From Phycisphaerae bacterium (GTDB taxonomy: Bacteria; Planctomycetota; Phycisphaerae; WQYP01): a stretch of 64,000 nucleotides of DNA. The translations under genes and the position numbers were made by a program. The DNA is taken from positions 68,845 through 132,844 of the forward strand of contig DATJSN010000092.1 in the NCBI GenBank assembly GCA_035504095.1, given 5' to 3'. Positions 29,260 through 48,654 of the stretch are shown here, piece after piece; position 1 is the first letter of the stretch; the number at the start of each line of letters is the position of its first letter. Below the pieces are notes generated by a model. That model was not told the origin of the DNA. It did not search any database and worked only from the letters and a program-made list of their open reading frames with translations.

Positions 29260-30171
29260 TTGTTCATGAATCTTTTTTCCCGTAAGAATCAACCAAAGCC
29301 AGACACATACCAGTACACGTTCCCTAGTAATGTTCGTAGTCGAATTCTCCTGACCTTCGCAGGCTTTTATGAGAACAACTATGATGGGTCTTCTTTTCGA
29401 TCACTCTTAGATGACGTAGCCCCAATACTTGCGAGAGAGTATGGAGGTTTAATGGGGGGCGACCAAATGGCGTCCCCTAGTCACGACCACCATCCAGTGA
29501 TCTTACACTTGTCATATTGCTCCGACCCGCAAGTGATTGATTTCATAACTATCGCTTTCCGGTCATGGAACTATAGGGCAGGACAGCACGGTGTGGATGA
29601 GATCAATCGCATTCTTCGAGAAGAATCTATTGGATACGAGTTCACACAGTACGTTGAACGAGAAGTACTTAGCCAAGATTCCAGTGGAAGAACAAGAAGA
29701 CTTATCGAATACGATTACCCAGAGGTGATCGTTAAGCACGAAGAATATGCCCATGAAAGCATTGTCAAGCCTTGTCTCAGCGTACTTGCCAATCCAGTGT
29801 TCAAGGTTGCTAACGATGAGATGTTGAAGGCACACGAACATATTCGGAAGAATAACTTGGATGATGCTATAACGTGTTGCGGAGCGGCGTATGAGAGCGT
29901 CATTAAGACGGTTCTCGATAAGAAGGGGTGGACATATGACGCCAAGAAGGATACGTGTGCCACGTTAGTGGACATCTGCGTAAGGGAGGGCTTACTGCCC
30001 GGATTCTGTGCCGATGCATTTAAGGCACCCGGTCGCTTCCGAAACAACCTAAGTTCAGCACACGGACGAGGTCCAACACCACTCCATGTCGCCGACCTCG
30101 AACACGTCGATTATATGATTCAGCTTTCATCTGCCAATATAATATTCCTAGTGAAATTGGCGAAATTCTGA
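29260..30171 (+). CDS. hypothetical protein with C-terminal HEPN-like R-x6-H motif (AbiJ-like architecture suspected)
   Basis: RNNLSSAHGRG near the C-terminus; first gene of a plus-strand block ending in the STAND NTPase. Confidence 0.3.
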   Translation: MFMNLFSRKNQPKPDTYQYTFPSNVRSRILLTFAGFYENNYDGSSFRSLLDDVAPILAREYGGLMGGDQMASPSHDHHPVILHLSYCSDPQVIDFITIAFRSWNYRAGQHGVDEINRILREESIGYEFTQYVEREVLSQDSSGRTRRLIEYDYPEVIVKHEEYAHESIVKPCLSVLANPVFKVANDEMLKAHEHIRKNNLDDAITCCGAAYESVIKTVLDKKGWTYDAKKDTCATLVDICVREGLLPGFCADAFKAPGRFRNNLSSAHGRGPTPLHVADLEHVDYMIQLSSANIIFLVKLAKF

Positions 30172-30203: not shown

Positions 30204-30776
30204 ATGGCAATTTTCTATCGTGGCGCTGGCATTGGAACTTGGTGGCACAAACACGGTCCTGGCCCAAAAGGCTGGAAAGCGCATTCACCCTATATGGAAG
30301 CTAGCGAAACACGCTTAATGAACCACATTGCAGAAGGCAGCACTGCCAGCCCTTTCATATCTTTAACGCGCTCGTATGGCGTTGCGTTAAACTATGCTCG
30401 TAATTCTGGCTTGAGTCGCCCCAATCGTAGGCGCCGTGCATTCGTTTGGGAAATCGAGCTTGAAGAACCTCTTCCGGATGGCTTGCGTTTACATGACCCT
30501 GTAAAAAGGATTGCCAACCATGTTCCACATCCCCTCGCAACTATTCCGTACCAGCACAATGGTGCACCGACCTGCCTCATCGGTTTGATTGATATAACAC
30601 AAGAGAAACTTCTCGCGCAGATATGTCCTGTGCCACCTAATTCAAATCCACCTTATGGCCCCCCTAATATTTCCCTGGGGCTCAAAACTTTAATCTTCGC
30701 ATTGAGAGACGCGGAAGTTCTCGCTACAGGAGTAATACCCAAAGAATGTGTACGCCGTCGATACGATGTTTTTTAA
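30204..30776 (+). CDS. hypothetical protein with R-S-E ADP-ribosyltransferase-like motif arrangement
   Basis: FYRG (residue 5-8), FISLTRS (~50), EIELEE (~83), spaced as in C3/iota-type ARTs. Confidence 0.3.
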   Translation: MAIFYRGAGIGTWWHKHGPGPKGWKAHSPYMEASETRLMNHIAEGSTASPFISLTRSYGVALNYARNSGLSRPNRRRRAFVWEIELEEPLPDGLRLHDPVKRIANHVPHPLATIPYQHNGAPTCLIGLIDITQEKLLAQICPVPPNSNPPYGPPNISLGLKTLIFALRDAEVLATGVIPKECVRRRYDVF

Positions 30777-30789
30777 TGGACTGATTAAA

Positions 30790-33700
30790 ATGGCTTCTAT
30801 GAGCAAAATCCGCACAATTAAACTGACAGGGTCACTCGGACCGTTGACTTTCCTGAGGGTCGAACTGACAAACGACGCGAGCAACGATTTTGCGATTATC
30901 CGCTACTCTCTTTCGGGGAAGGAGCAAACGGGAGGCTTAAGGCTCGATCTCAATAAACGTACCTTCTTAGATTTGACAGGCGTTGCGGCGGTTGATACCC
31001 AACTTCCTCAAATCGCGCTCCAAGTCCTTAATGCCATTGGAGACAGAGGTAAACATCGCACTCGAAGACCGCCTTACGTGGTCAAAATGCGCGAACCGAT
31101 CACTTCCGAGCGATTCCAACCGCTTTCAACTGGCGCAAAAACAAAAACATTTCTTGGCTTTGACTCTACATCGTTATCTCGTCTTGCAACGAAAGAGACA
31201 ATTGAATTATTTAGAAAAATGTTGTGGTGTTCTGCACGCCGTCATTCGTTGCCTATCCAATCGATCACGATCTCATTAAATGTAAACGCGCCAGATGGCG
31301 GTATCGATGCGTGTGTCGCACCCAACACGATTAATACGGATCAAGACTTATTGATCTCAGGGAATTCATATTTTCAGATCAAAGCTGGCGACTCTTCGAC
31401 CCCATGGCAAAAGTCGTGGCTTCAAAAGGAACTCTTTGGTAATGTTAAAAAGCATTCCAAAGCAGCACTAGGTAAGGCCGTCCAGAATTGCCTTGCGCAT
31501 AATGGCCGATACGTCATTGTTTGTTTCGGAATTGATCCAACCGATTCACAGCGTAGAAAAAGCATCAAATATTTGCGGGAATTATTTGCTGCTTGTGGCT
31601 ACAAACATGCACAAGTTGACGTGTGGGGGCAGGGAACACTGGCGGGTCTTATTCATCAGTTTCCATCAATAGAATTGCAGTTGTCCAACCGCCATCAATT
31701 ACCGTTTTCGACCCACGATGAATGGAAACTCGATTCTGAGATGGGGCGATCATTGCACCTAGGCAATGCTCAAAAAGAAATCATTGATGTAATTCGTAAT
31801 TGTCTACGTGGAACTGAAGTTTACCATGTGCGATTGATCGGTGAGCCTGGATTGGGTAAAACGCGCTTGGCACTCCAAGCGTTATCCGCTGAAGACTTGG
31901 CTCCAACTGTAATTTATGTGCGACACCCCGAAGATTTTCAACAAGGGCCACTGTTCAATGAGATACTTCGTGCCGACAATATATCTTCTATGACGCTTGT
32001 CATAGACGATTGCTCTGAAAAAGAACGAGCTTCGATCTGGAATGTTCTACGGCAACGAAGAGATCGCATTCGTCTCATTACCCTTGACCAAGGGCCAGAA
32101 AAATCTGCCGACGACTTAATGCAAGTATTCGAGTGCCCCGCTCTTGATAAGGAGCAAATAAAGGCAATACTCGCTGAATATATCGGTATGAATCCAGATA
32201 CAAATCGATGGATTGATTTTTGTTCAGGATCACCGCGTGTGGCTCATGCCGTAGGTGAAAATCTTCGTAGGAATCCTGATGATGTCCTTAAGCCAACAGC
32301 AACTGTACCTCTTTGGGAACGCTTCATTCAAGGAAATAGTAAAACTGGAAGCCAGGATGAATCTGAGAAAGAAACCGCTCTTAGGCACATTGCATTATTT
32401 CACAAATTTGGTTTTGAGCATCCTGTAGATGGGGAAGCCAAATTCATTTCGAGCATGATCGAGATTGCAAATCCGGCAATCACGTGGCAACGATTCCAGT
32501 CGATCATTAAGGATTTCCGTGATCGCCGAATTCTACAAGGCAAAACAACCCTCTTCATAGTACCCAAACTTTTACACATTTATTATTGGTGCCAATTTTG
32601 GGAACACTACGGGCCGGGGACGGACATCAGCAACTTGATTTCTCGTATGCCGCAGTCGCTGTTTCGCTGGTTTACCGAGATGTTCAAATACGGCCATGTA
32701 TCACAGAGTTGTCTCACTCGCATCGAGATTATTACTTCGTCAGGTGGTCCATTCGATAAACGAGAGTTTCTCATTTCTGGTCAAGGCTGTGTATTCCTAA
32801 ACGAGCTGGCTGAAGCGAATCCGGAGGCGACACTTCGTTGCCTTGAACGAACGATAGGCAATTGGTCACGTAAAGAGCTATTCGAACTTAGGCAAAGTCG
32901 TCAATACCTTGTATGGGCGTTGGAGAAAATCGCAATATGGAAGAATTTGTTCCAACGTGCCGCCACGGTATTGCTTAAGTTGGCGTTGGCGGAAAATGCA
33001 CCTAATAGCAACAACGCCATCGGTACTTTCTGCGATCTATTTACAATGGGATATGACCGGTTTGCCAGTTCTGAAGCACCGCCAGAATTGCGGCTACCCG
33101 TGCTGCGCACCGCACTCGAATCATCAGACCATGCGACACGAATGCTCGCATTGAAAGCCATCGACAAGAATTTGGATAACCATCCACACACTAAAATAGG
33201 CTGCCCAGAGTACCAAGGAATGCGTCAGCTTCCTGCGCTCTGGCGTCCCAAGACCTACGGAGAACTATTCAACGCCTATCGTTCTTGCTGGCAACTGGTT
33301 GTCGGATTCCATCGAACTGCGACTGGTGTCGAAAAAACAACGGCAACTAAAGTTATGATTGATGCTGCCTTCGGGTTGGTGCAAAATAGATGGATAGAAA
33401 AAGAGATTTTGGTCACACTCGAAAAACTGGCGGTCGATCCTGAAACAGACTTACGTCCTATCGTCAGGTTAATTTCACGATTTCGCGTTCTTCACTGGAA
33501 GAACCTTAGTAGAAATGCCGCCAAAAAATTGCATGCAATTGACAACAGAATTCGCGGCACAACGATTGAATCTCAGATTAAGCGAATGGTATTGCTGGCC
33601 AACCATGACGATATTGATAGAGGCGAGGGTAGCCAATACGGGAACAAATATAGGAAGAAACTAACACAGCTTGCACGATCAGCAATGTCGCAACCAGAAA

Positions 33701-34929
33701 TATTGAAAGCACTTTTGCCTGATTTATTGTCGCAACAAGAGGGTTTCGCCTTAATTTCATTTGGACAAGCTTGGGGAAATGAAGACCAATCTTTAGAATG
33801 GTGGCCCACTATTCTAGAACAGTTCACAGCATTAGGAGGTCAGCGGAATCCAGAACTGATGGCGGGGTATCTTGGAAGTATATTCAAAAAAAATCGCGAA
33901 AGATGGCAACTTATTGCACTGCAAATATTGGAAGATAGAACACTAGTTCGTTACGCAAAGCAACTGATTCTGGGGTCAGGTATGACCGAAGTTGTAATGA
34001 CAAAGCTGTGTACCGCGATAGAAGGCGGTACAGTTTCGGCAGAAGTACTTAGTCAAATGGGATATTTTGGAAAAGCATACGGCTTATCCACCGAACAACT
34101 AGTGGGGTTTATCAGTTGGTGTGCCAAACAAGGAACATTCGAACTGATGAGTGTCGGCTTAACTGCGGCGTACGCACTCTTCTGCACGGATAAGGATGCT
34201 CCACCAATTCCTGAAAAACCACTTCTCCAACTGCTCACGGCACCCAATGTACTGCATAGTCGTACGCCCGACCTTGCAGATTATGAATGGTCTGAGCTTA
34301 CTAAGCGATTTGTCGAGGCATATCCACAACATTCAATGCGCATAATTGAAAGCGTATTAAATCATTTTGATGATTTTGAGTTTGTGTTAGCCTTCTCACA
34401 TTCACAAGCACAGACGGCGATGCTTGATCTGGTACGTCGTGAACGACACGGGGCATGGTTGGCTGTCATCAACAAATTGAATCTACTTAACGGAACGATC
34501 TCGCACAACCTTCAGCATTGGCTAAACCCCGGCTACAAAGTAGGAGAAAATACCGAATTGGGCGTGTTAAACCTATTTGATATAAATGACATATTGGTTT
34601 GGATAGACGAAGATCCAAAAGTGCGAGCGCCATTCATTGCACGGGTATGTCCAAAAACACTAAACCAACATGAAGGAGGGCGACTGACGCGAGAAATACT
34701 CCACCGTTATGGCGATCAGGCCGAGGTTAAGAATGCTTTATGGGTGAATTTTGGCACAGAAAGCTGGATCGGAAGCGCGAGCAGTCATTATCGAAATAAA
34801 CGCGACCAAATGCGAGAGTGGCTATCCAAAGAAACCGTCACGACAGTTATTCGCTGGTTAGAAGAATACATCGATTACCTGGGTAATGAGATCAAGCGCA
34901 ACGAAATTAGCGAGGAGCGTGAGTATTGA
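30790..34929 (+). CDS. Avs-like antiviral STAND NTPase (N-terminal Mrr-type PD-QxK nuclease domain, P-loop NTPase, C-terminal helical repeats)
   Basis: DGGIDACV...FQIKAG (Mrr_cat-like), Walker A GEPGLGKTRLA, Walker B LVIDDC, ~800 aa of alpha-helical repeats. Start at ATG 30790 chosen to avoid overlap with the upstream gene. Confidence 0.6.
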   Translation: MASMSKIRTIKLTGSLGPLTFLRVELTNDASNDFAIIRYSLSGKEQTGGLRLDLNKRTFLDLTGVAAVDTQLPQIALQVLNAIGDRGKHRTRRPPYVVKMREPITSERFQPLSTGAKTKTFLGFDSTSLSRLATKETIELFRKMLWCSARRHSLPIQSITISLNVNAPDGGIDACVAPNTINTDQDLLISGNSYFQIKAGDSSTPWQKSWLQKELFGNVKKHSKAALGKAVQNCLAHNGRYVIVCFGIDPTDSQRRKSIKYLRELFAACGYKHAQVDVWGQGTLAGLIHQFPSIELQLSNRHQLPFSTHDEWKLDSEMGRSLHLGNAQKEIIDVIRNCLRGTEVYHVRLIGEPGLGKTRLALQALSAEDLAPTVIYVRHPEDFQQGPLFNEILRADNISSMTLVIDDCSEKERASIWNVLRQRRDRIRLITLDQGPEKSADDLMQVFECPALDKEQIKAILAEYIGMNPDTNRWIDFCSGSPRVAHAVGENLRRNPDDVLKPTATVPLWERFIQGNSKTGSQDESEKETALRHIALFHKFGFEHPVDGEAKFISSMIEIANPAITWQRFQSIIKDFRDRRILQGKTTLFIVPKLLHIYYWCQFWEHYGPGTDISNLISRMPQSLFRWFTEMFKYGHVSQSCLTRIEIITSSGGPFDKREFLISGQGCVFLNELAEANPEATLRCLERTIGNWSRKELFELRQSRQYLVWALEKIAIWKNLFQRAATVLLKLALAENAPNSNNAIGTFCDLFTMGYDRFASSEAPPELRLPVLRTALESSDHATRMLALKAIDKNLDNHPHTKIGCPEYQGMRQLPALWRPKTYGELFNAYRSCWQLVVGFHRTATGVEKTTATKVMIDAAFGLVQNRWIEKEILVTLEKLAVDPETDLRPIVRLISRFRVLHWKNLSRNAAKKLHAIDNRIRGTTIESQIKRMVLLANHDDIDRGEGSQYGNKYRKKLTQLARSAMSQPEILKALLPDLLSQQEGFALISFGQAWGNEDQSLEWWPTILEQFTALGGQRNPELMAGYLGSIFKKNRERWQLIALQILEDRTLVRYAKQLILGSGMTEVVMTKLCTAIEGGTVSAEVLSQMGYFGKAYGLSTEQLVGFISWCAKQGTFELMSVGLTAAYALFCTDKDAPPIPEKPLLQLLTAPNVLHSRTPDLADYEWSELTKRFVEAYPQHSMRIIESVLNHFDDFEFVLAFSHSQAQTAMLDLVRRERHGAWLAVINKLNLLNGTISHNLQHWLNPGYKVGENTELGVLNLFDINDILVWIDEDPKVRAPFIARVCPKTLNQHEGGRLTREILHRYGDQAEVKNALWVNFGTESWIGSASSHYRNKRDQMREWLSKETVTTVIRWLEEYIDYLGNEIKRNEISEEREY

Positions 34930-35054: not shown

Positions 35055-36407
35055 TTACGAATAACAGTTTCGTCCGGATACATCATAGCCCAAGGCTTCC
35101 AATACCCGGCAAATTTCGCTCCAAACCACGCCAGGGTACTGTGTCTCAATTTCGTCAATCTGCTTCTGGGTGATCTTATGCATTGATTCGGCGTCTTGTA
35201 CGCCCAGGGCAATCAGTACGGATTTAGTCCTTGGGGTTATGTCAAATTCGTCTAATAGCTTGTTCGTGGGAGGTTTCGCAACTTCAGGCCGGGGCGCCAC
35301 CTTGAACAAAGGGTCAAGAGAGTCGGCATACCAAGAGGCCCACTCAGACCATTCACGGAAATTTCTTTCGTCAATGATTCGCATTTCGCCGGATTCCACA
35401 AACTGATTTATCGCTTTTAGATAGGCGCGGATGCGTTCAGCATAGTGCCATCTGTCAACTTGTACCGCCAAACTTTCCCGTCGCTCCTTTTCTTTTTCAT
35501 TGTGCTGTTGTTTGGCCAATCTTAGTTGTTCAATCGCGTTCTTCTGGCGGGCATGGCATTCATTGTCGAGCCGGTGCCGTTTCCGATTTTCAATCTGAGC
35601 CACCAAGCCGTCGAGGATTCGATTGAGAATCTTCTCCAGTCGCTGATGGGTTCCATCGGCCCAATTCAAACGGAGTCCCTCGCTTTGAAAATTCTCGATT
35701 GAAAAGACCAATCGACCGTTCGGACGACTTGGTGGATACCTACGCAAGCGCCTTTTCTCCGGTGTCCCGTTCGGAAGCGGTTCGGGGAGCTCTTTTAGAC
35801 TCACGAGTACTTCATACGGGCCAATTGCAAATGCCGTGCTGTAATGACCAAGGAAACTTTTGACCCCGAGCTTGACCGATCCGCCGACTTCTTCCCATGC
35901 ACGAATCAACGCATCCATGATTTTCAGGGCGCGGGTGATCGAGTCTGACGCGACCGCGATATTCAACGCTGTTTTAGGGTCGCTATGAACGATGCGATTA
36001 TCATCAGGAGTACCTGCACGAAGTTGTATTCTTGTCTGTTCGACCAGCGCATGCGGTGATAAAAGATGCTCGGAAATTAAGATCGGTGCACGATTCACCG
36101 CCATTTGTCCAGATGCCCCATTGGTCACGGTATCGCCAAAAATCGCCGGCTGAGGGTGAAATTGAACTTTTTGAAGCTGCGGATCAGTTACGACCGGCAG
36201 CGGCGTGCGTTCGATCTGGTAGCCATACTTTCGCTGTGACCAGTACCCCTTCGGAGGACGCGGGATATTATGTCGGCGGCATGCTTTGCCGAGGGCCACA
36301 TCAGAAACGCCGTATTTCCGTGAGAGTTGCGTGCCCGGTACTTCCCAGAGTTCCACATAAAGCGTTTCCCGATCAACGCAATGATTTTCAGTTTGAAGTT
36401 GGGACAT
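35055..36407 (-). CDS. hypothetical protein (N-terminal HTH-like segment)
   Basis: 450 aa, 166 bp downstream of the GHKL operon on the same strand. Confidence 0.35.
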   Translation of the reverse strand: MSQLQTENHCVDRETLYVELWEVPGTQLSRKYGVSDVALGKACRRHNIPRPPKGYWSQRKYGYQIERTPLPVVTDPQLQKVQFHPQPAIFGDTVTNGASGQMAVNRAPILISEHLLSPHALVEQTRIQLRAGTPDDNRIVHSDPKTALNIAVASDSITRALKIMDALIRAWEEVGGSVKLGVKSFLGHYSTAFAIGPYEVLVSLKELPEPLPNGTPEKRRLRRYPPSRPNGRLVFSIENFQSEGLRLNWADGTHQRLEKILNRILDGLVAQIENRKRHRLDNECHARQKNAIEQLRLAKQQHNEKEKERRESLAVQVDRWHYAERIRAYLKAINQFVESGEMRIIDERNFREWSEWASWYADSLDPLFKVAPRPEVAKPPTNKLLDEFDITPRTKSVLIALGVQDAESMHKITQKQIDEIETQYPGVVWSEICRVLEALGYDVSGRNCYS

Positions 36408-36572: not shown

Positions 36573-37520
36573 TTAGAGGACAAGCTCAGCATAGGATGGG
36601 AGAAACCGATACACATCGCGGTACCTCTTGATATCCTCAGGTGCTGCTTCAAACGCATCTGGAACCCATTCATCTGCACATGGCATGACACAATCCAAAT
36701 GCAGGCGTTCTTTTCGTGTGAATCGCGGAATTTGTAGTTCACATGGGTCAAAGGAAAATGAAGTTCTGTAGTATATAGTGTTCTCTAAACCGGCGGCGGA
36801 CAATCTCCGTTTCTCATCAGGTGTACAAATCATTCCACCCACGGTGAGCATTGTATGGCCATCTTTGTATACAAAATTGAATATGCGGCAAAATTCAGCC
36901 TCACTCCTCGAACGCATTCCACGACTAATGATATTGTCAAGAATTTGCGTATTGAGTTTAACCATGTTTGATTTTGCAAATGTTGTACTGTCATGCCCGC
37001 GTGGAAGATACTCTGCAACCTCGGTAGCAAAATGCTCTTGCCATTGTTTCGGTCCAGTATCCTCTTTTCCCGGAGGTTCGACATCAACGGTTGTGAGCAA
37101 AAGTGATCCGGTCGTCAGACTACTTAAGGCGGATACAATATCGCGTGCATAATCGGCTCTAATAACTGTGTCATAGTCCAACCAAAGAATGTGCTTTCGG
37201 TCACGAGATAGTTCGGGGATTACTTTGCTAATTGGGGCAATGCGAACCTCAACGTTTCCATAAGGCTTATTGAATTCAACCCGCTTTTTAATTGCACTCG
37301 ATATTTCTACGCTGAGCATTTTCTGAATTCCTAAATACTTATGGAACAACGCGAAGTCGAAGAAGTAGATTGAGCCCATACCGGTATATTGATAGTCGGC
37401 AATAGGAAAACCAGCCGCGATTAGCCGTTGAAAGGCGTCAACCAACATGCGTCGCTCAACCTGTTTCGCTTCGCGAAGATCATATGGAACTTTTCGGTAG
37501 CTTTCGCTAATGGCGTTCAT
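36573..37520 (-). CDS. hypothetical protein, partner of the GHKL ATPase
   Basis: 315 aa; 4-bp overlap with the upstream ATPase gene; no recognisable family. Confidence 0.4.
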   Translation of the reverse strand: MNAISESYRKVPYDLREAKQVERRMLVDAFQRLIAAGFPIADYQYTGMGSIYFFDFALFHKYLGIQKMLSVEISSAIKKRVEFNKPYGNVEVRIAPISKVIPELSRDRKHILWLDYDTVIRADYARDIVSALSSLTTGSLLLTTVDVEPPGKEDTGPKQWQEHFATEVAEYLPRGHDSTTFAKSNMVKLNTQILDNIISRGMRSRSEAEFCRIFNFVYKDGHTMLTVGGMICTPDEKRRLSAAGLENTIYYRTSFSFDPCELQIPRFTRKERLHLDCVMPCADEWVPDAFEAAPEDIKRYRDVYRFLPSYAELVL

Positions 37521-38884
37521 TGGACGCCCTCCTGCTTGAGAAAATAATCGAATGTATAACGGCCAATATCTTTGGGAGGCATGCTAGGGCGCCGTAGGTG
37601 TTCGCGCACCTTTTCTAAGTCTGTAAGATTCACATTGTATCGAACGCTCGCCGTGGTCTTCTGTTTTCGCGGAAGCTTTTCCGGATTAAAGCTGCGGCTT
37701 GGCACTGAAGCAACCTGTCCAAGATCAGCTTGGCTAAGGGAAGTCATTATCTTCCGTTCATCCGAGGTCACTTCTGATTTTGACTGAGATAGACTGTTCA
37801 AGAAAGAATAAACTGGCCTTGCGATACTCGCCATTCGCTCACGAACTCGCAAGAACACAGCAGCTTCACGGTTGAGGCTGCGCTTCGTTGTGGTCCATGG
37901 AAGTTTCAAGGGGTCGCGAGAAGAAAAGGAAGCAATTCCAATGAATCCTCGCGATACACTGGTATGAAATTGTGGAAGAATGCCAGCTCCCCATCCGGTC
38001 AACTCCGTTTTGTCTGCGGCAAGAATTACGCGACCGTTACAGAGAACATACCATCCGGCAGGTTCAGCTCGCCATTCATTGGATTCGCCCCTTGCTGCAA
38101 GTCCAGCGATAAGTGTGATGTGGACGCCTTCCTCATCCCATGTCTCCACGGCGGGCGTGAAATTTTCGGACGCACCAAGTGGGATTAATGTGGGAGAAAT
38201 AGACATTCCGTTGAGAATAATATCGACGTATCGAGTTAAAAATGAAGCATAAGTTTGTGCAATCGAGCGATGCAGTGCAGTTGTTGTTGTCGGATCTCTG
38301 AACAGCGACTGGATGTCAGGGCTGATTCGTGCAATATTGATTGTCGTTCCAGGCTGCTCTGGGGGCATTGCTCCTTCAAGGTGATCCAAGGGAAACCGCC
38401 AGTCATTGAGAGTGTCATCCTTCTGTGACCACTCAGCAACATCCACCTTGACTCGAAATCCGTTAACGGCTGTATGAGATGTCATTTCGAAATGATCGCC
38501 AATCTTAAAAATTGCTCGCTTGAGACCAATTCCATAAGCACCCAGTTGTGTTGTGCCCATATCACCGGCAGGGTGTTCCGCATGGCCAAAATTGAATACT
38601 TCCCGTTCAGCATAAGCTTGGTCAATTCCTCCACAATTGTCCTGAATGGAAAAACCGTCTTTTGTATAACTAACCTGAATTCTAGCCTTAGGCTCGTTGA
38701 TAGGTATTATAGGATTGGTGTTCAACAGGTCCTTTGCGTCGAGATTAAGTTGACGCGACCGAATCAGGCCATCAATGGAATTGTCGATCAAATCTAAAAT
38801 GCAGTCTTGGAGTGAGATGTCTCGCGTGAACATCTCCAAAAAAAACCTCTTACGCGGGAGCGCGAGTGCATATGTGTCGGACAT
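37517..38884 (-). CDS. GHKL-superfamily (MutL/MORC-like) ATPase
   Basis: N-box LDLIDNSIDG, G1 box IQDNCGGID, G2 box GAYGIGLKRAIF. Confidence 0.6.
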   Translation of the reverse strand: MSDTYALALPRKRFFLEMFTRDISLQDCILDLIDNSIDGLIRSRQLNLDAKDLLNTNPIIPINEPKARIQVSYTKDGFSIQDNCGGIDQAYAEREVFNFGHAEHPAGDMGTTQLGAYGIGLKRAIFKIGDHFEMTSHTAVNGFRVKVDVAEWSQKDDTLNDWRFPLDHLEGAMPPEQPGTTINIARISPDIQSLFRDPTTTTALHRSIAQTYASFLTRYVDIILNGMSISPTLIPLGASENFTPAVETWDEEGVHITLIAGLAARGESNEWRAEPAGWYVLCNGRVILAADKTELTGWGAGILPQFHTSVSRGFIGIASFSSRDPLKLPWTTTKRSLNREAAVFLRVRERMASIARPVYSFLNSLSQSKSEVTSDERKIMTSLSQADLGQVASVPSRSFNPEKLPRKQKTTASVRYNVNLTDLEKVREHLRRPSMPPKDIGRYTFDYFLKQEGVQ

Positions 38885-39345
38885 GCTCTGTTCCTTCCAA
38901 TCTCTGGTCAGGCACTAATCAGTATATAGTTACCCGTATTCGCTTCAGCCAACCGTTCTATACCACGTTTCGGAACTAATTCCAGTTGGCAGCAAAACCG
39001 ACACCAACCCTAGTGCACGACCACGATGCTGATCTTTCCGTTGTAGGACTTGTTGGCTAGGTAACCTGCGAAACACCAGCCACTCTTCAATTTTGAAATC
39101 ATTGTCGCTTGTTTGAATCGCCCTGTAAACGGCTAATGCAACGACGGATAATCAGATGCCTGGTTAATAATTCAAAGCGTGCGTGCCGGAATTGGTGGTT
39201 GTCCCTAATAGTTCCAAAAGGTCGCTGTCCAAACCATTTCACACCCTCACGCTTAAACTTGCTTCCTAATCGCACTGATATGGCATATGCCCCGGTAAAT
39301 TGCGGCTGCGTCGAGATCACTGGCGGTCATGATCCTGCAACGATT

Positions 39346-40797
39346 TCATCTTCGAACAACCAAACGATGTCCTTTTAGTGTGACTCCGCGTTGGAGCAAG
39401 ACTTTTTCCCAACCGTTGCGCGTTCCAATTGTTGCGGTATCATCAAAAAGTCTATGCCTTTCTTCTTGTTTGGTAAGATGCTCAAAGCGTTCTCTGCGTG
39501 GATCATCAGGCCCTAGGAATGTTTCCTTGCGATGCAATATGGGTGGGTTTGTTGAGTCCCGGAAGTTCAAGTGCTTTACATCCCCGTTGCTGAGCTTAAG
39601 ACGTAGTGATTCAGCTAGAGCAGGATGAGGATCGGTATTAAACTCTGGATACAGCAGATACGACACTTTTGGCTCAACCCGATTCAACTTGATCAAATTT
39701 GCGCCCTCAACATGACCCAGATAGCTGCGAGCACACCCCTCATAGACGCGGAGTAGAGCTGGCAGATGGGCCAGCGCATCGACATGCACATAAAGGGCTT
39801 CGCCCGTAAGCTTTCCGACCGGTGAATGCTCCATCGAATGATTGAGTTCCGCCATGTTTCCGGTGCGGAAAAGCAGTTTATCACCCTCAACGCAGGCCTT
39901 ATTGTACGTGGAGAAGAATTCTCGCACATCCAATTGCTGGTCCGCCGGTAGCTCGGAGAACCGTGGGCGACCACCAAAGCGGTCCAATGCAAAGTGGATT
40001 AGCAACTCTTCTCGCCGTTCCTGCTGTAACTGCTCCCAACGCTCTGCCCCAGTGACGCGCCGAACAACCGCGAATGCTTTCGGCACACTGCCGAAGATTT
40101 CAGCAAGTTGACCATGAACGGGGAATTCTTCAGGTGCAGGCAGCCGTCCGCGATCAGCCACAAATTCCATCAATGGCATGAGCAGATTCTCATGCTGTTG
40201 GAACAGAATGTCGCTCATCCGTGGAACAGGCACCGCCCGATGTCGCCTATACCTAGCTTCTAGGAACCGCTGGCGCAATTCTTCATCGCGGAAAATAAAG
40301 AAAATTCCTGGCGCAGCAGCCAAGGCACGTTGCACCAAGACCTGCTCCAACCAGTCCCGTAGCTCAAGTTGGTTGAAGAATTTCTGAAAAGTTCCGCGAC
40401 CGGTTAGACACCCATCGGCATATGACTCGAACCTCGCCTCCTTGGCCTCGTATACGAGCCGAGCTGAAACAATCAACAGTTTCTTGGCCAAGTCCCATGC
40501 TGATCGCACGACATTGGCCCGTTCTTCTACATTTTCGATAACATTGACTACATAACCCAAGTTCACTACGTCCGCAGATATTCGGGGTGCCTGGGGTTGA
40601 TGGACGGGGTCCCAGCCCGCCGCTTGAAATCCAGAGTCCGCAAGGTTACGCAAATCGTCGCCGCGCCCGCAACCATAGTCGAAAACGGTCGTTTCAAAAT
40701 GGATTAAATGCGACTCCAGGGCCGCACGGAAGGGCTTTGATAGTCCGGCGCGTCCGATAGCCGTTTTGTGACGATGAATTTGAGGCACGTTCGACAT
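39346..40797 (-). CDS. DNA phosphorothioation-associated putative SAM-dependent methyltransferase
   Basis: VFDYGCGRGDD motif I. ATG at 40797 preferred, since the longer ORF to 41004 would overlap divergent dndA. Confidence 0.55.
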   Translation of the reverse strand: MSNVPQIHRHKTAIGRAGLSKPFRAALESHLIHFETTVFDYGCGRGDDLRNLADSGFQAAGWDPVHQPQAPRISADVVNLGYVVNVIENVEERANVVRSAWDLAKKLLIVSARLVYEAKEARFESYADGCLTGRGTFQKFFNQLELRDWLEQVLVQRALAAAPGIFFIFRDEELRQRFLEARYRRHRAVPVPRMSDILFQQHENLLMPLMEFVADRGRLPAPEEFPVHGQLAEIFGSVPKAFAVVRRVTGAERWEQLQQERREELLIHFALDRFGGRPRFSELPADQQLDVREFFSTYNKACVEGDKLLFRTGNMAELNHSMEHSPVGKLTGEALYVHVDALAHLPALLRVYEGCARSYLGHVEGANLIKLNRVEPKVSYLLYPEFNTDPHPALAESLRLKLSNGDVKHLNFRDSTNPPILHRKETFLGPDDPRRERFEHLTKQEERHRLFDDTATIGTRNGWEKVLLQRGVTLKGHRLVVRR

Positions 40798-40910
40798 GTT
40801 ACATTCGAATTTCCAAAACAAAGCCGACGGTCCATGTTTCGAGCAAGCGCAAGGCTGCATTGCAACAGCCTGCCATTGGCTCAGACAACAGTATGTCATA
40901 GGATGTCGGC

Positions 40911-42041
40911 ATGATCTATCTCGATCACAATTCAACAACACCAGTGCTGCCGGAAGTATTGGAGACGATGCTGCCTTATTTCGGCACAGAATGGGGGAAT
41001 CCATCGAGTACTTATCGTTTTGGTGCGAAATTGAAGGGTATGATTGAAGCTGCTCGTGGTGAGGTCGCCGAACTTATCGGAGCACATTCCCGCGAAATAT
41101 TATTTACTTCCTGCGCTACGGAGAGCAATAATACGGCGATTCATGCGGCATTGAAAGCCAATCCTGGCAAGCGGCACATTGTTACATCATCGGTGGAACA
41201 TTCGTCAGTTTTGAATTACTGCATGGCGTTAGAAAAAGAAGGCTTTCGTATAACTTATTTGCCGGTAGATCGAGATGGTCTTCTAAGACTAGCGGACCTA
41301 GAAAATGCAATTACAGTTGATACCGCCATCGTATCTTTAATGTGGGCAAATAATGAGACGGGGGTGCTGTTTCCTGTAAAAGAGATTGCGGAACTATGCC
41401 GGTCCCGAGGGGTTTTGTTCCATTGCGATGCAGTGCAAGCGGCTGGGAAGATTGAAATTGATGTGAAAAAAGTACCAGCAGATTACCTATCGCTAACTGG
41501 CCATAAGTTTCATACACCAAAAGGCATCGGAGCCTTGTTCGTGCGCCGGAAATCTCCATTTACACCATTGATATTTGGCGGGCATCAAGAACGTAGTATG
41601 CGCGGTGGAACTGAGAGCGTGCCGCTAATCGTCGGCATAGGCAAAGCTGCGGAATTAGCGAAGAAACACCTGTCCGACTACAACAAAAAGGTCCGCCCCT
41701 TACGTGATACACTAGAAAAGGGCATTTTGAACTCAATTCCGAACGCAGAGTTAAACGGCCATAAAACGCAACGACTGGTTAATACCACAAACATTACTTT
41801 TCACGGAATTGAATCTGAAGCAATGCTTATACTTCTCGACAAAGAAAGTATTTGTGCTTCGTCCGGTTCGGCTTGTTTGGCGGATTCAGATGAGCCGTCA
41901 CACGTAGTTCGGGCCATGAAGCCCAATTCAACGGCGTCGCGGCAGATGATACGTTTTTCTCTGGACATTGCGAATAATTCTGCCGACATCAAGACGACAT
42001 TGACGGTTTGTCAGCAAGTGGTCGCAATGCTCCGCAGTTAG
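40911..42041 (+). CDS. dndA: cysteine desulfurase (NifS/IscS class; DndA role)
   Basis: PLP-fold desulfurase: TSCATESNN, HK (SLTGHKFH), C-terminal SGSAC active-site Cys loop. Confidence 0.8.
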   Translation: MIYLDHNSTTPVLPEVLETMLPYFGTEWGNPSSTYRFGAKLKGMIEAARGEVAELIGAHSREILFTSCATESNNTAIHAALKANPGKRHIVTSSVEHSSVLNYCMALEKEGFRITYLPVDRDGLLRLADLENAITVDTAIVSLMWANNETGVLFPVKEIAELCRSRGVLFHCDAVQAAGKIEIDVKKVPADYLSLTGHKFHTPKGIGALFVRRKSPFTPLIFGGHQERSMRGGTESVPLIVGIGKAAELAKKHLSDYNKKVRPLRDTLEKGILNSIPNAELNGHKTQRLVNTTNITFHGIESEAMLILLDKESICASSGSACLADSDEPSHVVRAMKPNSTASRQMIRFSLDIANNSADIKTTLTVCQQVVAMLRS

Positions 42042-43273
42042 CGACGTTTAATCCTTGCATGTGCGTCTCCGAGTACCCTCCGGTACTCTTCTACGACATT
42101 GTAATTTGTCGGCGCTGGGTCTTGGTTGGCCATGTAGAGAAGTAAATTCAACGCAAGTTTCTTATACTTCACGATCATAGTCTTTGTGGCAGCATTCCAG
42201 AGCACACCCACCAATGGATTTGACGAAAGATTTAACTGTACCTTCGCTAACTTCATTACGGCGGAATCAACGGATGTTCCCCTATCAATCATCACTCTAA
42301 CTGCCCGTGTGAAGGCCTGTAAGCCAGCGGGTCTAAAAAGCAAATGTCCTCCATTTTCTGTCCTATATCTTCCGGCGAGCGCTGCTCTTGGTGGTGAAGA
42401 CATAACCTTCGCTAGAGGAGGGATGTTCTGCTTGAGTGCGTTCCAATAGGAGATTACAAAATCATTAATTTCTTCGACACGCTGCCAATTAGGCGGGCCC
42501 ACCTCCAGCACCTTTCGTTCACGACTTCCGGTAGCAATACTTATAGTTCGAACCAATTCATAAAGTGCTATTACTGTAGTAACACTAGTCAGATTTCCTG
42601 GCGGAATATTCGCAGTTGGAGAGAGTGGTACAAATTCACCGTTCAGTCCTTGGTATGTGTCAATTAGCCGACGAGTCACGATTGCAAATGCATCATCGTC
42701 GTTGAGGGCGATTAGCTCGGCAGGAGACACAGGCTTTGCGTATTTATTGAGAGTTGTGAACAATCGGCGTGTTCTCTCTCTTCCTTCGTCGGTTCGCTTA
42801 TGTGATACGAAAATGACGACTAATTCATCTTCTTTCAGCTCTACATTACGCTTCAGTGCTTCTTTGATTCCATCAACACGGTGCTGTCCATCGACTGCGA
42901 ATATCTCTTCATTTCCTGACAGATGAAGAAAACCAAAAGTGTTTGCCTGACGTTCATCAAGCTTGATATCCTTTAGCGTCTTACTACTACCGACCTCAAC
43001 TGGAAACCATTCAGGTTCTCCACCATAGATGCCAACAACCACAGCATTAAAAAAGTGTTGTTTTTGTTTAATGAGATAGGTTGCGATTTCCTCTTTCCTT
43101 TCAGGGCGCAAAACTCGTTGAATCCAAGTCTTTAATTCCTTCCTCTCATGTATTTCATCGACTTGTCTGATCCATTTTGCGACTTCGGCGAAGGTCAGAG
43201 TAGTGACATAGAACCATCGATCTCCCATCCGGGAACGAAGTGCGGGAAACAGATTTGAAGGTTGTTCATTCAT
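42038..43273 (-). CDS. dndB: DGQHR-domain protein (DndB-like)
   Basis: Exact DGQHR motif (FAVDGQHRVDGIKEA). Confidence 0.6.
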   Translation of the reverse strand: MNEQPSNLFPALRSRMGDRWFYVTTLTFAEVAKWIRQVDEIHERKELKTWIQRVLRPERKEEIATYLIKQKQHFFNAVVVGIYGGEPEWFPVEVGSSKTLKDIKLDERQANTFGFLHLSGNEEIFAVDGQHRVDGIKEALKRNVELKEDELVVIFVSHKRTDEGRERTRRLFTTLNKYAKPVSPAELIALNDDDAFAIVTRRLIDTYQGLNGEFVPLSPTANIPPGNLTSVTTVIALYELVRTISIATGSRERKVLEVGPPNWQRVEEINDFVISYWNALKQNIPPLAKVMSSPPRAALAGRYRTENGGHLLFRPAGLQAFTRAVRVMIDRGTSVDSAVMKLAKVQLNLSSNPLVGVLWNAATKTMIVKYKKLALNLLLYMANQDPAPTNYNVVEEYRRVLGDAHARIKRR

Positions 43274-43276
43274 GGA

Positions 43277-43783
43277 TCAATGCGAAAATATTTTGGCTAA
43301 AGCATGACGAACCGAAGCTGGAAATTTGTGATTAGAAGGTGGTAAATATGCTGCGAGCAAGGCATTTTCCACTTTTTTTATGTCTTTTCTTTTGTGTATT
43401 ACAGCATAGTAAAACCATAAATAGCCATCCCATTTGTCCAGCATCTCAACCACATGCAGCCGTCGAGACAAGTCGCCTCTTTTTTTATCACTTAAATACT
43501 GAGAAAACCGATCACGAAGCATTTGCCTCTCCGTCATACCGACGTACATAAGATAAGAACAACTAGGGTGGCGGGCGATTCCCGGCTTTATTATAAACGT
43601 ATAAACACCTCCCGCATTGTTGGGCACGTAATTACTCTTCGTAGATTCAAACTTAACATAATGCCACTTCAGTTTTGATCGCAACTTGTAACTGCACCAA
43701 TGTGAAGGAGAAAGCACCATCCTTGTCAATTTATAATCATTGAGTTTGTACTTAGAGGTTTGTCTGCTAAAAATATCGTCCAT
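43277..43783 (-). CDS. small GIY-YIG-like putative nuclease
   Basis: GVYTF...YVGMT...R...E...N spacing resembles GIY-YIG. Confidence 0.3.
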   Translation of the reverse strand: MDDIFSRQTSKYKLNDYKLTRMVLSPSHWCSYKLRSKLKWHYVKFESTKSNYVPNNAGGVYTFIIKPGIARHPSCSYLMYVGMTERQMLRDRFSQYLSDKKRGDLSRRLHVVEMLDKWDGYLWFYYAVIHKRKDIKKVENALLAAYLPPSNHKFPASVRHALAKIFSH

Positions 43784-43789
43784 GCAAAT

Positions 43790-45277
43790 TTATTTTCCTT
43801 CATCTTTCCAAAACTGCCTAGCCATGCCGGTGGTTTGCAACTTCCCACGATTACAAAGCGCTGCTTCGGCCTTTAAAAATTTCTGATGAATGACGCTCCC
43901 GAGAACATTTTTTTGATCCGCGACACTCAGTGTCTGTGGGGAAAAGTGCACGCCGCACTCGGCGAGTTGGGCGAAATTGGTTTCATTCGTACCCGTGGTC
44001 AAAAACTTGTCGGCATCTTGAGACGCGAGCCAGACGGGAAAACCCCATGATCTTCCCTGCCGGGCGAGCGAACTTAATAAGCCAGCTTTATTTTCCTTTG
44101 GCAAGAGCAAATGGGCTTCGTCCACGAACAACACCATTTTGATCGGTTGTACGTCATTTTTGACAGCTACTTGTTGGCTCAATTTTTTAATGAGGAAGTT
44201 TAGGATGAGCGCAACGGCAAGCGCTTTGCCATCGCTGTCTGTGTTAAATTCCTTAAAGTCAATCACCATGGAACTATTCAGCCACTCTTCTGGAGGAATT
44301 GCAGTATGGGCACTGGCAAAAAGATTATAACGCTCAATTTTTTGCACGATGGACAAATCAACTCCGTTTGCGCCGCTGTTTTCCAATTCCCGAACCAAGG
44401 AGGTAATGTCAGGAGAGGCAAGCCGTCGGTAGCAATCGCAAATATTCCGTTCCTGTTTTGCCCCCATTTGTGGCGCAAAGCAACGAATCAAACCAGCTAT
44501 CTCGTAGGCAATTTGATCGTTCTTCGTTGGATTTGGGTGCCGGTAAAGCGGATTGATTGGCAAATCTTGCTGGATAAGACGGACATAGCGTGCACTAGTC
44601 TGTTCCAAAAATTTGGTACGGTTCTTGCGTTGCTGCGGGCTGCGAGGATCGTCTTCTAGTTCACCTTTCATGTCAAAAAAAACAAAACGGACGCCAGTAT
44701 TGCTGAGTTGCGCCAAGAGATCGAGTGCAAGCTGGCTTTTTCCACTACCAGGTTGCCCAGAAATAACTAACAGTCCATTGTTAGTTCCGGGACCGTTTAA
44801 CGACCATTCGGGCGCGTCCGTCAGAACCTTGAGTTTTATTTCCTTTTCGACTAATTGCATGGGAGCCACGGCCTGTCTCAGCATGTAAGGAAGGTCAAGA
44901 TCGCCTCCTATAGATTTCAACAGGGAGGTAACAAAACGCGCTTGGTCGTTGCCTGACTCTACCCATATCTGCCGTAATCGCTGACACCCAAACTCAAAAT
45001 GTCGGCGAAATTCCTGACGGTAGCCCCCTTCATCGAGAGTTTGTCCGGCACGGTGATTCAAGGCTGTTCGCACCAAATCTCTCAACTCATCGCCGACAAC
45101 CTGCTCGTCATTCAACGTCACCCCTTTGGCGTCTTTGGGTTTAAATTCGGCGGGTATACCTTCACCCAACGCCAAGAAAAGTGCCGCACGTCCTAGAATT
45201 GCCTGATTCCTTGCGCCTACACGCGCAAAGACATTTTCGATGAATTCGTGCGCTTCGCTGCTTGTATCAAATTTCAA
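43790..45277 (-). CDS. HerA/FtsK-like (DUF87-type) P-loop ATPase
   Basis: Walker A ISGQPGSGKSQ; Walker B VLFVDEAHLL. Confidence 0.5.
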   Translation of the reverse strand: MKFDTSSEAHEFIENVFARVGARNQAILGRAALFLALGEGIPAEFKPKDAKGVTLNDEQVVGDELRDLVRTALNHRAGQTLDEGGYRQEFRRHFEFGCQRLRQIWVESGNDQARFVTSLLKSIGGDLDLPYMLRQAVAPMQLVEKEIKLKVLTDAPEWSLNGPGTNNGLLVISGQPGSGKSQLALDLLAQLSNTGVRFVFFDMKGELEDDPRSPQQRKNRTKFLEQTSARYVRLIQQDLPINPLYRHPNPTKNDQIAYEIAGLIRCFAPQMGAKQERNICDCYRRLASPDITSLVRELENSGANGVDLSIVQKIERYNLFASAHTAIPPEEWLNSSMVIDFKEFNTDSDGKALAVALILNFLIKKLSQQVAVKNDVQPIKMVLFVDEAHLLLPKENKAGLLSSLARQGRSWGFPVWLASQDADKFLTTGTNETNFAQLAECGVHFSPQTLSVADQKNVLGSVIHQKFLKAEAALCNRGKLQTTGMARQFWKDEGK

Positions 45278-45292
45278 GCTGGTTTCTCCAAC

Positions 45293-47362: not shown

Positions 47363-48654
47363 CCCTTTTTCTCTGCTGATTGCTCTGCCAAGTCATCTTT
47401 CAAAATATTGAGCAAATCGTCCGGCAAGCCGTATGCACGATGGCTTTCACTGTATTCCTCTACTTTGGCAAGCATACGACGGAGAATATCGGGGTTGATT
47501 TTCTTTTCACTGGCAACTTGTTCCTCCAGTTGGCGTAGACGGTTCAGTTCTCGCAAATCGGTATTCATGATGACACCTCGTTGTTTGTTGATGATTCGGG
47601 CAACACCCCGACCATCGTCGGGGTCACGTGCTGCTTTCCACATTTGCTGAATCAAAAGTAGCTCTTCTGGCGTGATGAGCGGCAACCCAGTTTCTTCCTG
47701 TAGCTGGAGAAGGCGCTTCAAGAGTTCGCGGCGACCTTCAATTCGTAATGGTCCAGGTCCATCATTGCCGTTCATGCGGCGGCTGTCACGCCAACCATTT
47801 GCAGGATCACGGAATTGTATAAGTGTTTCACGGAAGGCTATCAGATGTTCCATTCGTTCATCACCAGCGGCAAGCAATCCTTCGCTTGCCTTGTCACGAT
47901 CTACAACGGTGCATGTCCAACATCCAAAACGCGAATTGCCGCAAGAGGGAGTGCTGGTATCAATCTGGATAGGGCACTCGCCGTTGGAAGCATTGGCGTA
48001 TAGTCTATACAAGGAGCGATTATCACTACCCCAAGGATTGTTTTTTTGAAGCAGATATGCCCAGACTTCCTCAGTAGAGAGGAATTCGATTGGATTGTTA
48101 ACCCACACGAGCGGCAAGTCAGGATGACGACGCAAGCCATTACGAGTTATCTGGCCAGCCATTGTCTGTGCCCGTGTGGCGCTTTCAGCACGTCTTGCAC
48201 CCAAATGTAAAATGGCTTCGCCCCAGTGACCAATACGCTGGTTTACGAATGTCGTGACTGGATCAATTTTCATACGCTGAGTACACCAGCGGAATGTACG
48301 ATTTGGTGGTGGATAGCCGCGACCAATAATATTGACCCAAAAGGATTGTTCCGGAGGCGGCTTTAGCAACTGAGTTTCAATGTTAAGATTATTTTGCCGA
48401 GAGCAGCGCCGCATTCGCTCAAGATTCCCTTCAATCCCCTCTGAAACTGCCGGTATCTCGACACGAGTATCAGTGCAAAGGATCGCAATGGGCTTTTTCC
48501 GCTGGTCAACCGGTAGGGACAGGACAGTGTCAAAAACGAGTGACGCGACCATCGTGCTGTCTTTACCCCCGCTGAATCCAACAAGCCAAGGACGTTCATC
48601 TTCGACGTAGAGTCGCAGCATTGCATCTCGTATATCCTGGAACGCCGTGCTCAT
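47359..48654 (-). CDS. dndC: DNA phosphorothioation sulfurtransferase DndC (PAPS reductase/PP-loop family)
   Basis: FSGGKDS PP-loop and C-terminal Cys cluster CGNSRFGCWTC. Confidence 0.8.
   Translation of the reverse strand: MSTAFQDIRDAMLRLYVEDERPWLVGFSGGKDSTMVASLVFDTVLSLPVDQRKKPIAILCTDTRVEIPAVSEGIEGNLERMRRCSRQNNLNIETQLLKPPPEQSFWVNIIGRGYPPPNRTFRWCTQRMKIDPVTTFVNQRIGHWGEAILHLGARRAESATRAQTMAGQITRNGLRRHPDLPLVWVNNPIEFLSTEEVWAYLLQKNNPWGSDNRSLYRLYANASNGECPIQIDTSTPSCGNSRFGCWTCTVVDRDKASEGLLAAGDERMEHLIAFRETLIQFRDPANGWRDSRRMNGNDGPGPLRIEGRRELLKRLLQLQEETGLPLITPEELLLIQQMWKAARDPDDGRGVARIINKQRGVIMNTDLRELNRLRQLEEQVASEKKINPDILRRMLAKVEEYSESHRAYGLPDDLLNILKDDLAEQSAEKKG

Follow-up and report, generated by a model that had tools for sequence, protein, structure and literature searches.

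The 64-kb window analyzed here, the whole stretch of DNA taken from contig DATJSN010000092.1 of a Phycisphaerae bacterium, carries two overlapping genes which encode a MORC-like GHKL ATPase and a protein of the Methyltransf_35 family (MT35). From the co-occurrence and order of the two genes, the folds and motif conservation of their products and their linkage to modification genes we infer, with about even confidence, that the pair is the non-modifying effector half of a defence module that is linked to DNA modification, resembles restriction-modification (RM) systems and is probably nuclease-free. The basis of this reading is comparative: the defence function, DNA as the substrate, the formation of a complex and the protection by the linked modification are all steps reached by inference. 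An earlier note on this DNA had proposed that the pair, with its MORC-like ATPase, may be a defence system not described before. This stands in so far as the module is real, uncharacterised and without a match in PADLOC or the literature; the partner, however, belongs to a known family, and an RM-like class of this type was predicted in 2008.

Both open reading frames (ORFs) were found on the minus strand where the earlier note had placed them, the ATPase gene at 37517-38884 (455 aa) and the MT35 gene at 36573-37520 (315 aa). The 4-bp overlap that it had described is an ATGA at 37517-37520 (minus strand), in which the TGA stop of the ATPase gene and the ATG start of the partner share bases. 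The junction reads CAATGAACGCC, and GGAGGG is located 8 nt upstream of the MT35 start. The ATGA overlap implies that the two genes would be translationally coupled, and an abutting or overlapping arrangement recurs in 51/52 and 71/80 related loci from genomes and metagenomes, respectively. Upstream of the pair lies an intergenic region of 461 bp (38885-39345, minus strand), with a Shine-Dalgarno-like ribosome-binding site, GGAAGGA, before the ATPase start. This region may contain a promoter of the pair's own; a promoter and terminator scan upstream of the pair returned nothing beyond shuffled expectation.

The translated ATPase contains the motifs LDLIDNSIDG (residues 30-39), DNCGGID (82-88) and GAYGIGLK (115-122), and all boxes of GHKL proteins are present, with D31xxD34N35xxD38 as motif I, D82NCGG86 as G1 and G115AYGIGLK122 as G2. 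Residues D34, N35, D38, D82, G85, G86, G118, G120 and K122 were invariant in an alignment of 105 homologs, which confirms the Bergerat-fold N, G1 and G2 boxes recognized in the earlier note. An Asp (D31) is located where the general-base Glu is usual. The ATPase is predicted to be catalytically competent. HATPase_c_3 was the sole family reported by Pfam (E 5e-10, 40 bits vs a cut-off of 25); neither a MutL C-terminal (MutL_C) dimerisation/endonuclease domain nor a DNA mismatch-repair domain was detected by Pfam, in agreement with the earlier claim that a MutL-type C-terminus is lacking. The GHKL domain is followed by an S5-fold transducer with a conserved Lys, as in a MORC-type module, and by a helical, family-specific C-terminal extension (about residues 342-455). 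In fold comparison the protein was closest to MORC3, SMCHD1 and MORC2, and its fold was wholly covered by GHKL and S5 plus helices, while its sequence gave only marginal matches to HtpG and MORC2 among solved structures (E 0.02-0.04). No helix-turn-helix (HTH) DNA-binding or other regulator domain was detected by Pfam in the ATPase or in MT35.

The earlier note had recognized no family in the 315-aa partner, a view that could not be upheld. The protein matches Pfam PF20553 (Methyltransf_35, 'putative O-methyltransferase') from end to end (E 8e-80, 268.9 bits vs a cut-off of 27, model positions 2-307 of 309), and PF20553 was carried by all 120 of the 120 MT35 homologs listed. MT35 displays the features of class I S-adenosylmethionine (SAM)-dependent methyltransferases, namely a Rossmann-like seven-strand fold, a GxG loop, an acidic end of strand 2 and the residue after strand 4. 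Conservation was examined in 112 family members, including clades just 27-31% identical to the window protein. Invariant or nearly invariant were the glycine loop Y45-x-G47-x-G49 after strand 1, the acidic E72 at the end of strand 2, W113-L-D115 after strand 4, and K19, R23, D55, N84, Y218 and E271. A conserved helix near the N-terminus contains R16, K19, E22 and R23. Because the residues of the cofactor motifs are retained across such deep clades, it is highly probable that MT35 is enzymatically active and uses SAM. The 'O-' given by Pfam is a putative label, and the acceptor atom and the substrate are not deducible from sequence; among the best structural matches are N-methyltransferases as well as enzymes that transfer alkyl groups other than methyl (spermidine synthase, TYW2). 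Fold comparison covered the protein wholly with a methyltransferase fold and a small C-terminal subdomain, and no relative of solved structure was found even at E<=10 with a profile. The earlier note had described the partner as neither a nuclease nor a helicase, and no nuclease family was detected in it by Pfam or NCBIfam. The family comprises 2,218 clusters at 50% identity, and its best 150 representatives are stand-alone proteins of about 310-350 aa without fusions.

The two genes were found together almost without exception. A forward scan, using the MT35 alignment against one genome per species, yielded 52 loci, 51 of which encode a GHKL homolog (28-52% identity) directly upstream of MT35 on the same strand; the single exception begins 35 bases from a contig end. 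A reverse scan of metagenome contigs with the GHKL alignment yielded 80 loci, and MT35 was located directly downstream of the GHKL gene in 71 of them. Among the nine misses, eight are on contigs that end with the ATPase gene or no more than about 300 bp from its end, leaving L103 as the sole locus without MT35 despite enough contig. This gene-neighbourhood check thus supports the strict co-occurrence expected from the earlier note, and the pair is, judged from these loci, obligate. The genome loci came from at least 13 phyla (Acidobacteriota, Verrucomicrobiota, Chloroflexota, Planctomycetota, Bacteroidota, Desulfobacterota, Spirochaetota, Bacillota, Actinomycetota, Ignavibacteriota, Armatimonadota, Abditibacteriota and Pseudomonadota) and from one Promethearchaeota metagenome-assembled genome (MAG). 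Cultured carriers include Dyadobacter luteus RS19 (L029), Pseudomonas mercuritolerans (L044) and Anaerobacterium chartisolvens DSM 27016 (L037). In searches of phages and plasmids, the IMG/VR scan gave no match, GenBank phages one (PfAC20) and PLSDB plasmids two, one of which is broken by IS66.

Three loci contain MT35 copies that are variant or decayed. In a 426-aa ORF of Clostridium tanneri (L050, 9995-11275), the two MT35 halves are separated by about 200 inserted aa. In Sinorhizobium meliloti psymA (L138, 6283-8647) an IS66 element is located between the GHKL gene and an MT35 remnant. At about 10001-10957 of L013 a full-length MT35 was aligned by tblastn, and the ORF selection contains no MT35 ORF there.

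All-against-all clustering of the neighbouring ORFs detected a single further recurrent gene and no conserved third neighbour other than methyltransferases. This gene encodes a DNA methyltransferase of the beta class (N6_N4_Mtase, about 275 aa) with a DPPF/SPPY motif and a conserved CxxC...KDYGG segment. As determined by tblastn, it is located within 3 kb of the pair in 36/52 genome and 71/80 metagenome loci (107/132 in total), and in 69 of these 107 it is found on the same strand less than 150 bp upstream, often with a 4-bp overlap with the ATPase start. The usual unit therefore consists of three genes in the order beta-class N4/N6 DNA methyltransferase, GHKL and MT35. The earlier description as a two-gene operon was right about the paired, overlapping genes, but the natural unit is usually larger, either three genes with the DNA methyltransferase or a pair embedded in a larger system.

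In the remaining genome loci, the beta class was replaced by a C5 cytosine methyltransferase (PF00145) in seven of the 52 and by phosphorothioation (PT) genes in five, while the other four had truncated flanks. PF01555 or PF00145 methyltransferases adjoin the pair in 114/132 loci. The five PT-linked loci are L032, L037 and L044, with DndA/C/D/B homologs, L040, in which a PAPS_reduct gene overlaps the ATPase start, and L050, with a DptH-like HerA/FtsK protein of 1715 aa; such a protein was also found in L037. The linkage to modification genes is conserved while the other neighbours are not, indicating an operon rather than island clustering. These other neighbours are heterogeneous, with both housekeeping and defence genes; defence matches among the 126 immediate neighbours included type I, IIG and III RM, BrxL, PbeC, DndD, DzbA and MzaB. 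The enrichment in defence islands appears moderate only, as judged from these neighbours, and the cassette is a self-contained mobile unit which is located in a defence island only sometimes.

The pair was also found embedded in larger systems. On the Microvirga terrae plasmid pR24_2 it is located inside a class 1 DISARM operon arranged as DrmD, MmeI-like methyltransferase, ATP-binding protein, 'O-methyltransferase', DrmA, DUF1998 and DrmC, with a 4-bp overlap between the methyltransferase and ATPase genes. In the nearest long-contig relative of the window (74% identity), the pair follows a cluster of SNF2/NOV_C helicase, DUF1156 methylase, SMC_N/AAA_15, 191-aa and DUF499 genes. ORF1-ORF3 of the filamentous prophage PfAC20 of P. 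aeruginosa encode GHKL, MT35 and a C5 methyltransferase in an accessory region, the same region which in other Pf phages contains toxin-antitoxin, IetAS, Avs or AbiE systems (PMC11878078). A PADLOC-based study of Pf prophages from 2025 scored PfAC20 as 'incomplete', with a cytosine methyltransferase only (PMC11878078). In L044 a HARE-HTH/Mrr_cat enzyme overlaps the MT35 end, and in L025, L045 and L047 BamHI-like enzymes adjoin the methyltransferase, apparently as complete type II RM systems.

A neighbour-joining tree of 128 ATPases contained one large clade in which linkage to the beta-class methyltransferase is nearly universal, and a second, deep clade tied to C5 methyltransferases, PT genes, DISARM and Pf phage. 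The window ATPase is inside the large clade, where it groups with L053, L054, L055 and L008; no beta-class methyltransferase was seen in this small subclade. The nesting of this subclade within the beta-class clade, together with the deep clade of other partners, indicates that the modification partner was swapped repeatedly. The small upstream ORFs of the window subclade (199 aa in L054/L055 and 152 aa in L008) were considered as further components and set aside, as they are not conserved elsewhere.

Loci of the C5- and PT-linked clade often encode a second, longer GHKL protein (539-591 aa) near the pair (L034, 6792-8411; L035, 13086-14792; L041, 6727-8451; L044, 124-1899), so that two different MORC-like ATPases are found beside one methyltransferase. 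The scanned neighbours included the second GHKLs of L034 and L035; over all of these neighbours there were two PADLOC MzaB matches and two Pfam HATPase_c_3 matches, as counts and not as assignments to single proteins. On the contig of P0004 (3871-5696), an SMC_N/AAA_15/AAA_21 ATPase gene and a 191-aa ORF are located upstream of the pair, between the DUF1156 methylase and DUF499, and look like another small system nested in this cluster.

In the window, no beta-class or C5 methyltransferase was detected within the 64 kb by tblastn or by hidden Markov model searches of all six-frame ORFs. The methyltransferase slot upstream of the ATPase is filled, on the same strand, by a TIGR04096 protein ('DNA phosphorothioation-associated putative methyltransferase', NCBIfam E 4.3e-175) at 39346-40800. 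Its longest ORF (39346-41004, minus strand, 552 aa) overlaps the start of the divergent dndA (40911-42041, plus strand). The model aligns from residue 75, and the true start is probably M69 at 40800, which leaves a divergent promoter region of about 110 bp. Next to it is a dnd-type phosphorothioation cluster (40911-48654, identified with NCBIfam and Pfam) which encodes a NifS/DndA-like cysteine desulfurase, a DGQHR/DndB-like protein, a 168-aa ORF, a fusion of DndE to a HerA/FtsK-like ATPase, a DndD-like protein and a DndC that scores above the cut-off. The TIGR04096 methyltransferase is a candidate provider of the self-mark and the PT mark of the dnd cluster an alternative or additional one; both assignments are uncertain. 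The pair is also located beside dnd/ssp or Dpt-like genes in L032, L037, L040, L044 and L050.

Named systems were compared by means of PADLOC-DB v2.0.0 (2023), which covers Mza, Tiamat, MADS, Dnd/Dpt, Ssp, Pbe, DISARM, BREX and the PDC and HEC candidates among others, and by literature searches covering open-access papers. The window ATPase and MT35 matched no PADLOC v2.0.0 model at E<=0.1, nor did five divergent MT35s, and no paper describing the GHKL-MT35 pair or PF20553 was found in the open-access literature. The earlier claim that the pair matches no named system thus holds within this scope. Divergent GHKLs showed weak similarity to MzaB or TmtA, restricted to the ATP-binding domain (MzaB E 1e-6 to 1e-3). 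The Mza system, attributed to Gao et al. 2020, reportedly contains the MutL-like GHKL protein MzaB in a methyltransferase-associated defence locus; the pair shares with it the association of a GHKL ATPase with methyltransferases, and the similarity to MzaB is limited to the ATP-binding domain. MutL itself differs by its C-terminal domain, which the ATPase of the pair lacks.

BREX bases the distinction of self from non-self on a methyltransferase, contains ATPases and no dedicated nuclease, and stops the replication of phages with no obvious cutting of DNA. In function, it is the closest analogue of a cassette that lacks a nuclease. There is no homology; none of the PglX, BrxC, PglZ and BrxL models matches the pair, and the cassette differs from BREX in consisting of three genes with two different methyltransferase-fold proteins. 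In class 1 DISARM the pair is inserted between the methyltransferase and drmA on pR24_2, yet it is not a core DISARM gene, and Drm genes are absent from the window.

Beside dnd and ssp modification genes, the pair occupies the same position as DndFGH/DptFGH and SspE/SspFGH. A total of 83.9% of sspBCD clusters have no known restriction partner (PMC8092258), leaving room for alternative partners such as the pair. With a Walker A motif in SspF and an FtsK-like SspH, these proteins, unlike the pair, contain neither GHKL nor a methyltransferase fold (PMC8092258). An identity of the pair with SspFGH, DndFGH or SspE was rejected on domain content and on the lack of any Dnd, Dpt or Ssp match in PADLOC; L037 and L050 contain Dpt-like genes as well as the pair. 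Other GHKL proteins that act in or regulate anti-phage immunity are GHKL-Shedu (paraMORC3, VcSduA) and CapK/CapS. The pair is not CapK/CapS, as it has neither the HTH-STAS-GHKL kinase nor the repressor with STAS and winged HTH domains, and V. cholerae WonAB and VcSduA are different proteins.

The closest precedent is the prediction by Iyer, Abhiman and Aravind in 2008 that MORC and paraMORC GHKLs are DNA-looping engines of RM systems (PMC2292703). The pair shares with these systems the GHKL and S5 module, a sporadic and laterally mobile distribution and the operon linkage to DNA methylases (PMC2292703). It therefore falls in this predicted class and is not a wholly new category. New here are a cassette free of helicase and nuclease, a second conserved component which itself has a methyltransferase fold, and the ability to plug into DISARM, DUF499/DUF1156 and dnd/ssp systems.

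If the pair is such an effector, a dimer of the ATPase would act as an ATP-gated clamp or loop-former on DNA, by analogy with MORC2, MORC3 and MutL, and MT35, using SAM, would recognise DNA without the host modification or mark it covalently. Unmodified incoming DNA would then be kept from replication or expression without cleavage, by analogy with BREX, or, in the embedded variants, be passed to the nucleases of the host system (DrmC, the Mrr-like enzyme). The self-mark would be supplied by the linked modification gene, with beta-class, C5, DrmMI-type, DUF1156 and dnd/ssp partners being exchangeable; in the window, the TIGR04096 methyltransferase and the dnd cluster may serve as suppliers, which is uncertain.

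A bolder and distinctly unlikely version is a nuclease-free 'mark-and-clamp' immunity, in which MT35 would write a deleterious or signalling alkyl mark on unprotected DNA and the MORC-like dimer would entrap and silence it. The mark could be placed, for example, on the Watson-Crick face, as the structural neighbours Trm1 and TrmI do on RNA, and variants beside Mrr-type enzymes (L044) would cleave the newly marked DNA. If true, restriction would be achieved by SAM-dependent DNA damage or silencing instead of cleavage, and the eukaryotic coupling of MORC ATPases to DNA-methylation silencing would have a forerunner in prokaryotes.

Several observations weigh against the pair being the effector half of a modification-linked defence module. 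Neither protein contains a nuclease domain according to Pfam, NCBIfam and fold comparison, and none of the endonuclease types of classical RM systems of Types I-III (PD-(D/E)xK, HNH, PLD, GIY-YIG) was found in either. The structural neighbours of MT35 are mostly RNA and small-molecule transferases and not DNA methyltransferases. The ATPase, MT35 and the beta-class methyltransferase are unusually conserved, with 45-55% identity across phyla, whereas classical RM specificity subunits diversify. It is unlikely that one conserved reader would sense N4-methylcytosine or N6-methyladenine, 5-methylcytosine and PT alike. Intact pairs without a modification gene in reach occur in L074 and, within the available flanks, in L066, L101 and L117, and the neighbours past the cassette are largely housekeeping genes, e.g., MreB, ribonucleotide reductase, ABC transporters and glycosidases. 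In the window, 461 bp separate the pair from the upstream TIGR04096 gene, the closest relatives of which (79-81% identity) are located in the same dndC-dndD-dndE/ATPase-...-dndA-methyltransferase block without the pair. The downstream slot of these blocks contains different genes, e.g., a PDDEXK_1 nuclease. The pair was therefore probably added to a pre-existing block of dnd genes and methyltransferase, and its link to TIGR04096 may be mere adjacency.

Among the alternatives, it is unlikely that the pair is an accessory, regulatory or repair helper of DNA-modification systems without anti-phage activity of its own. Such a helper would assist, time or proof-read the linked modification enzyme, for example by establishing the modification once DNA has been transferred, by processing lesions associated with it or by sensing SAM. 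The chemically unrelated systems that the pair joins (N4/N6, C5, DrmMI, DUF1156 and PT) are easier to reconcile with a general helper than with a reader of one specific mark. In L025, L045 and L047 the type II RM systems appear complete already, the DISARM and Dpt-containing loci already possess a restriction function, and no nuclease was found in the pair. There is also precedent in CapK/CapS, two-gene regulators beside RM and immune operons, and in the MutL/Vsr-type repair linked to Dcm (PMC2292703). Yet 107 of the 132 loci offer a small, orphan-like methyltransferase alone, with no restriction gene to assist, a mobile three-gene cassette carried as a Pf prophage moron is easier to explain as a complete system, and neither protein has a DNA-binding HTH or other regulator domain according to Pfam. 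A very unlikely alternative is an element of dual modification, in which MT35, aided by the ATPase, would write a second epigenetic mark on DNA or RNA for an anti-restriction or epigenetic role without restriction activity. It would fit the canonical methyltransferase fold of MT35, in which every SAM-binding and putative catalytic residue is kept across deep clades, the absence of a nuclease from the pair and the frequency of orphan methyltransferases on mobile elements (PMC11878078). It leaves unexplained the obligate MORC-type ATPase, the strict pairing with a second, different methyltransferase, the embedding between DISARM genes and the overlap with an Mrr-type enzyme.

The view taken in the earlier note, that the two genes form a defence system on their own and adjoin methyltransferases and dnd genes only because such genes cluster in defence islands, appears highly unlikely. 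It is favoured by the intact pairs without a detectable modification gene (L074, and L054/L055 of the window subclade), by the long spacer in the window and by the existence of the dnd block of the upstream methyltransferase without the pair. Against this, a modification gene adjoins the pair in about 120/132 loci. For the most part it shares the orientation of the pair at a distance of up to 150 bp, and stop and start codons often overlap, whereas the other neighbours are unconserved and often housekeeping genes.

The pair is part of a lower-GC island of about 34 kb flanked by a 42-bp perfect direct repeat (20470-20511 = 54554-54595), the second copy of which is the 5' part of tRNA-Leu(taa) at 54558-54642. 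The cargo comprises AbiEii, ArdC, the STAND gene, the pair, the dnd block, PrimPol-AAA_25 and a tyrosine integrase. The repeat at tRNA-Leu, the integrase, AbiEii and ArdC agree with the integrative element with defence cargo described in the earlier note, and the pair is indeed located between an Avs-like STAND gene and the dnd cluster, as shown by the PADLOC match below and by the TIGR04096 and Dnd genes. The integrase ORF (53132-54664) runs into the tRNA gene, and its listed end is probably not the true gene end. The AbiEii toxin gene (20749-21828, minus strand) overlaps an upstream 224-aa ORF (21785-22459, minus strand), which probably encodes a partner of the AbiEi/DUF6088 type; in L141, the gene before AbiEii is a DUF6088 gene. 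An anti-restriction protein with ArdC-N and a zincin peptidase, typical of conjugative and integrative elements, is encoded at 23899-24876 (minus strand).

The STAND gene (30748-34929, plus strand, 1393 aa) matches PADLOC PD-Lambda-4_A (E 4.5e-28). It is preceded by a gene for a STM4504/CBY_0614-family protein (29260-30171, plus strand, E 6.6e-32, under the cut-off) and by a 190-aa ORF (30204-30776, plus strand) whose end overlaps the STAND gene start; the three may form one unit. Downstream of the pair, a 450-aa ORF (35055-36407, minus strand) converges on the STAND gene and matches no Pfam, NCBIfam or PADLOC family. The earlier note had considered it as a possible component, but it was rejected as a third gene of the system, as tblastn found no homolog in 135 related loci.

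Within the dnd cluster, a 495-aa protein (43790-45277, minus strand) has a DndE-like N-terminus (Pfam 28.7 bits vs a cut-off of 25) fused to a HerA/FtsK/AAA_10-like ATPase, and a separate small dndE is absent from the cluster. The same fusion, with about 492 aa, was also found in two related dnd blocks, at 3198-4676 of L139 and 3403-4881 of L141. The P0398 contig encodes a 69%-identical TIGR04096 protein after a different 576-aa HATPase_c_3 protein, a DEAD/ResIII helicase and a 329-aa protein of no known family. This contig is plasmid-like, with ParA/ParB/TraG/relaxase genes, and dnd genes are absent from it. The TIGR04096 family itself may be a partner of MORC-type RM-like systems.

If the pair is part of a defence system, it would represent a widespread nuclease-free family with at least 2,200 clusters at 50% identity in at least 13 phyla and one archaeal MAG. 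It could account for some of the 'orphan' methyltransferases and 'orphan' dnd/ssp clusters without a known restriction partner. Loci of the cassette are currently labelled 'incomplete RM' by annotation pipelines. The link between MORC proteins and DNA modification was predicted in 2008 and its mechanism is still open in eukaryotes; the pair would offer a tractable bacterial model for MORC-type ATPases that act on DNA alongside DNA modification.

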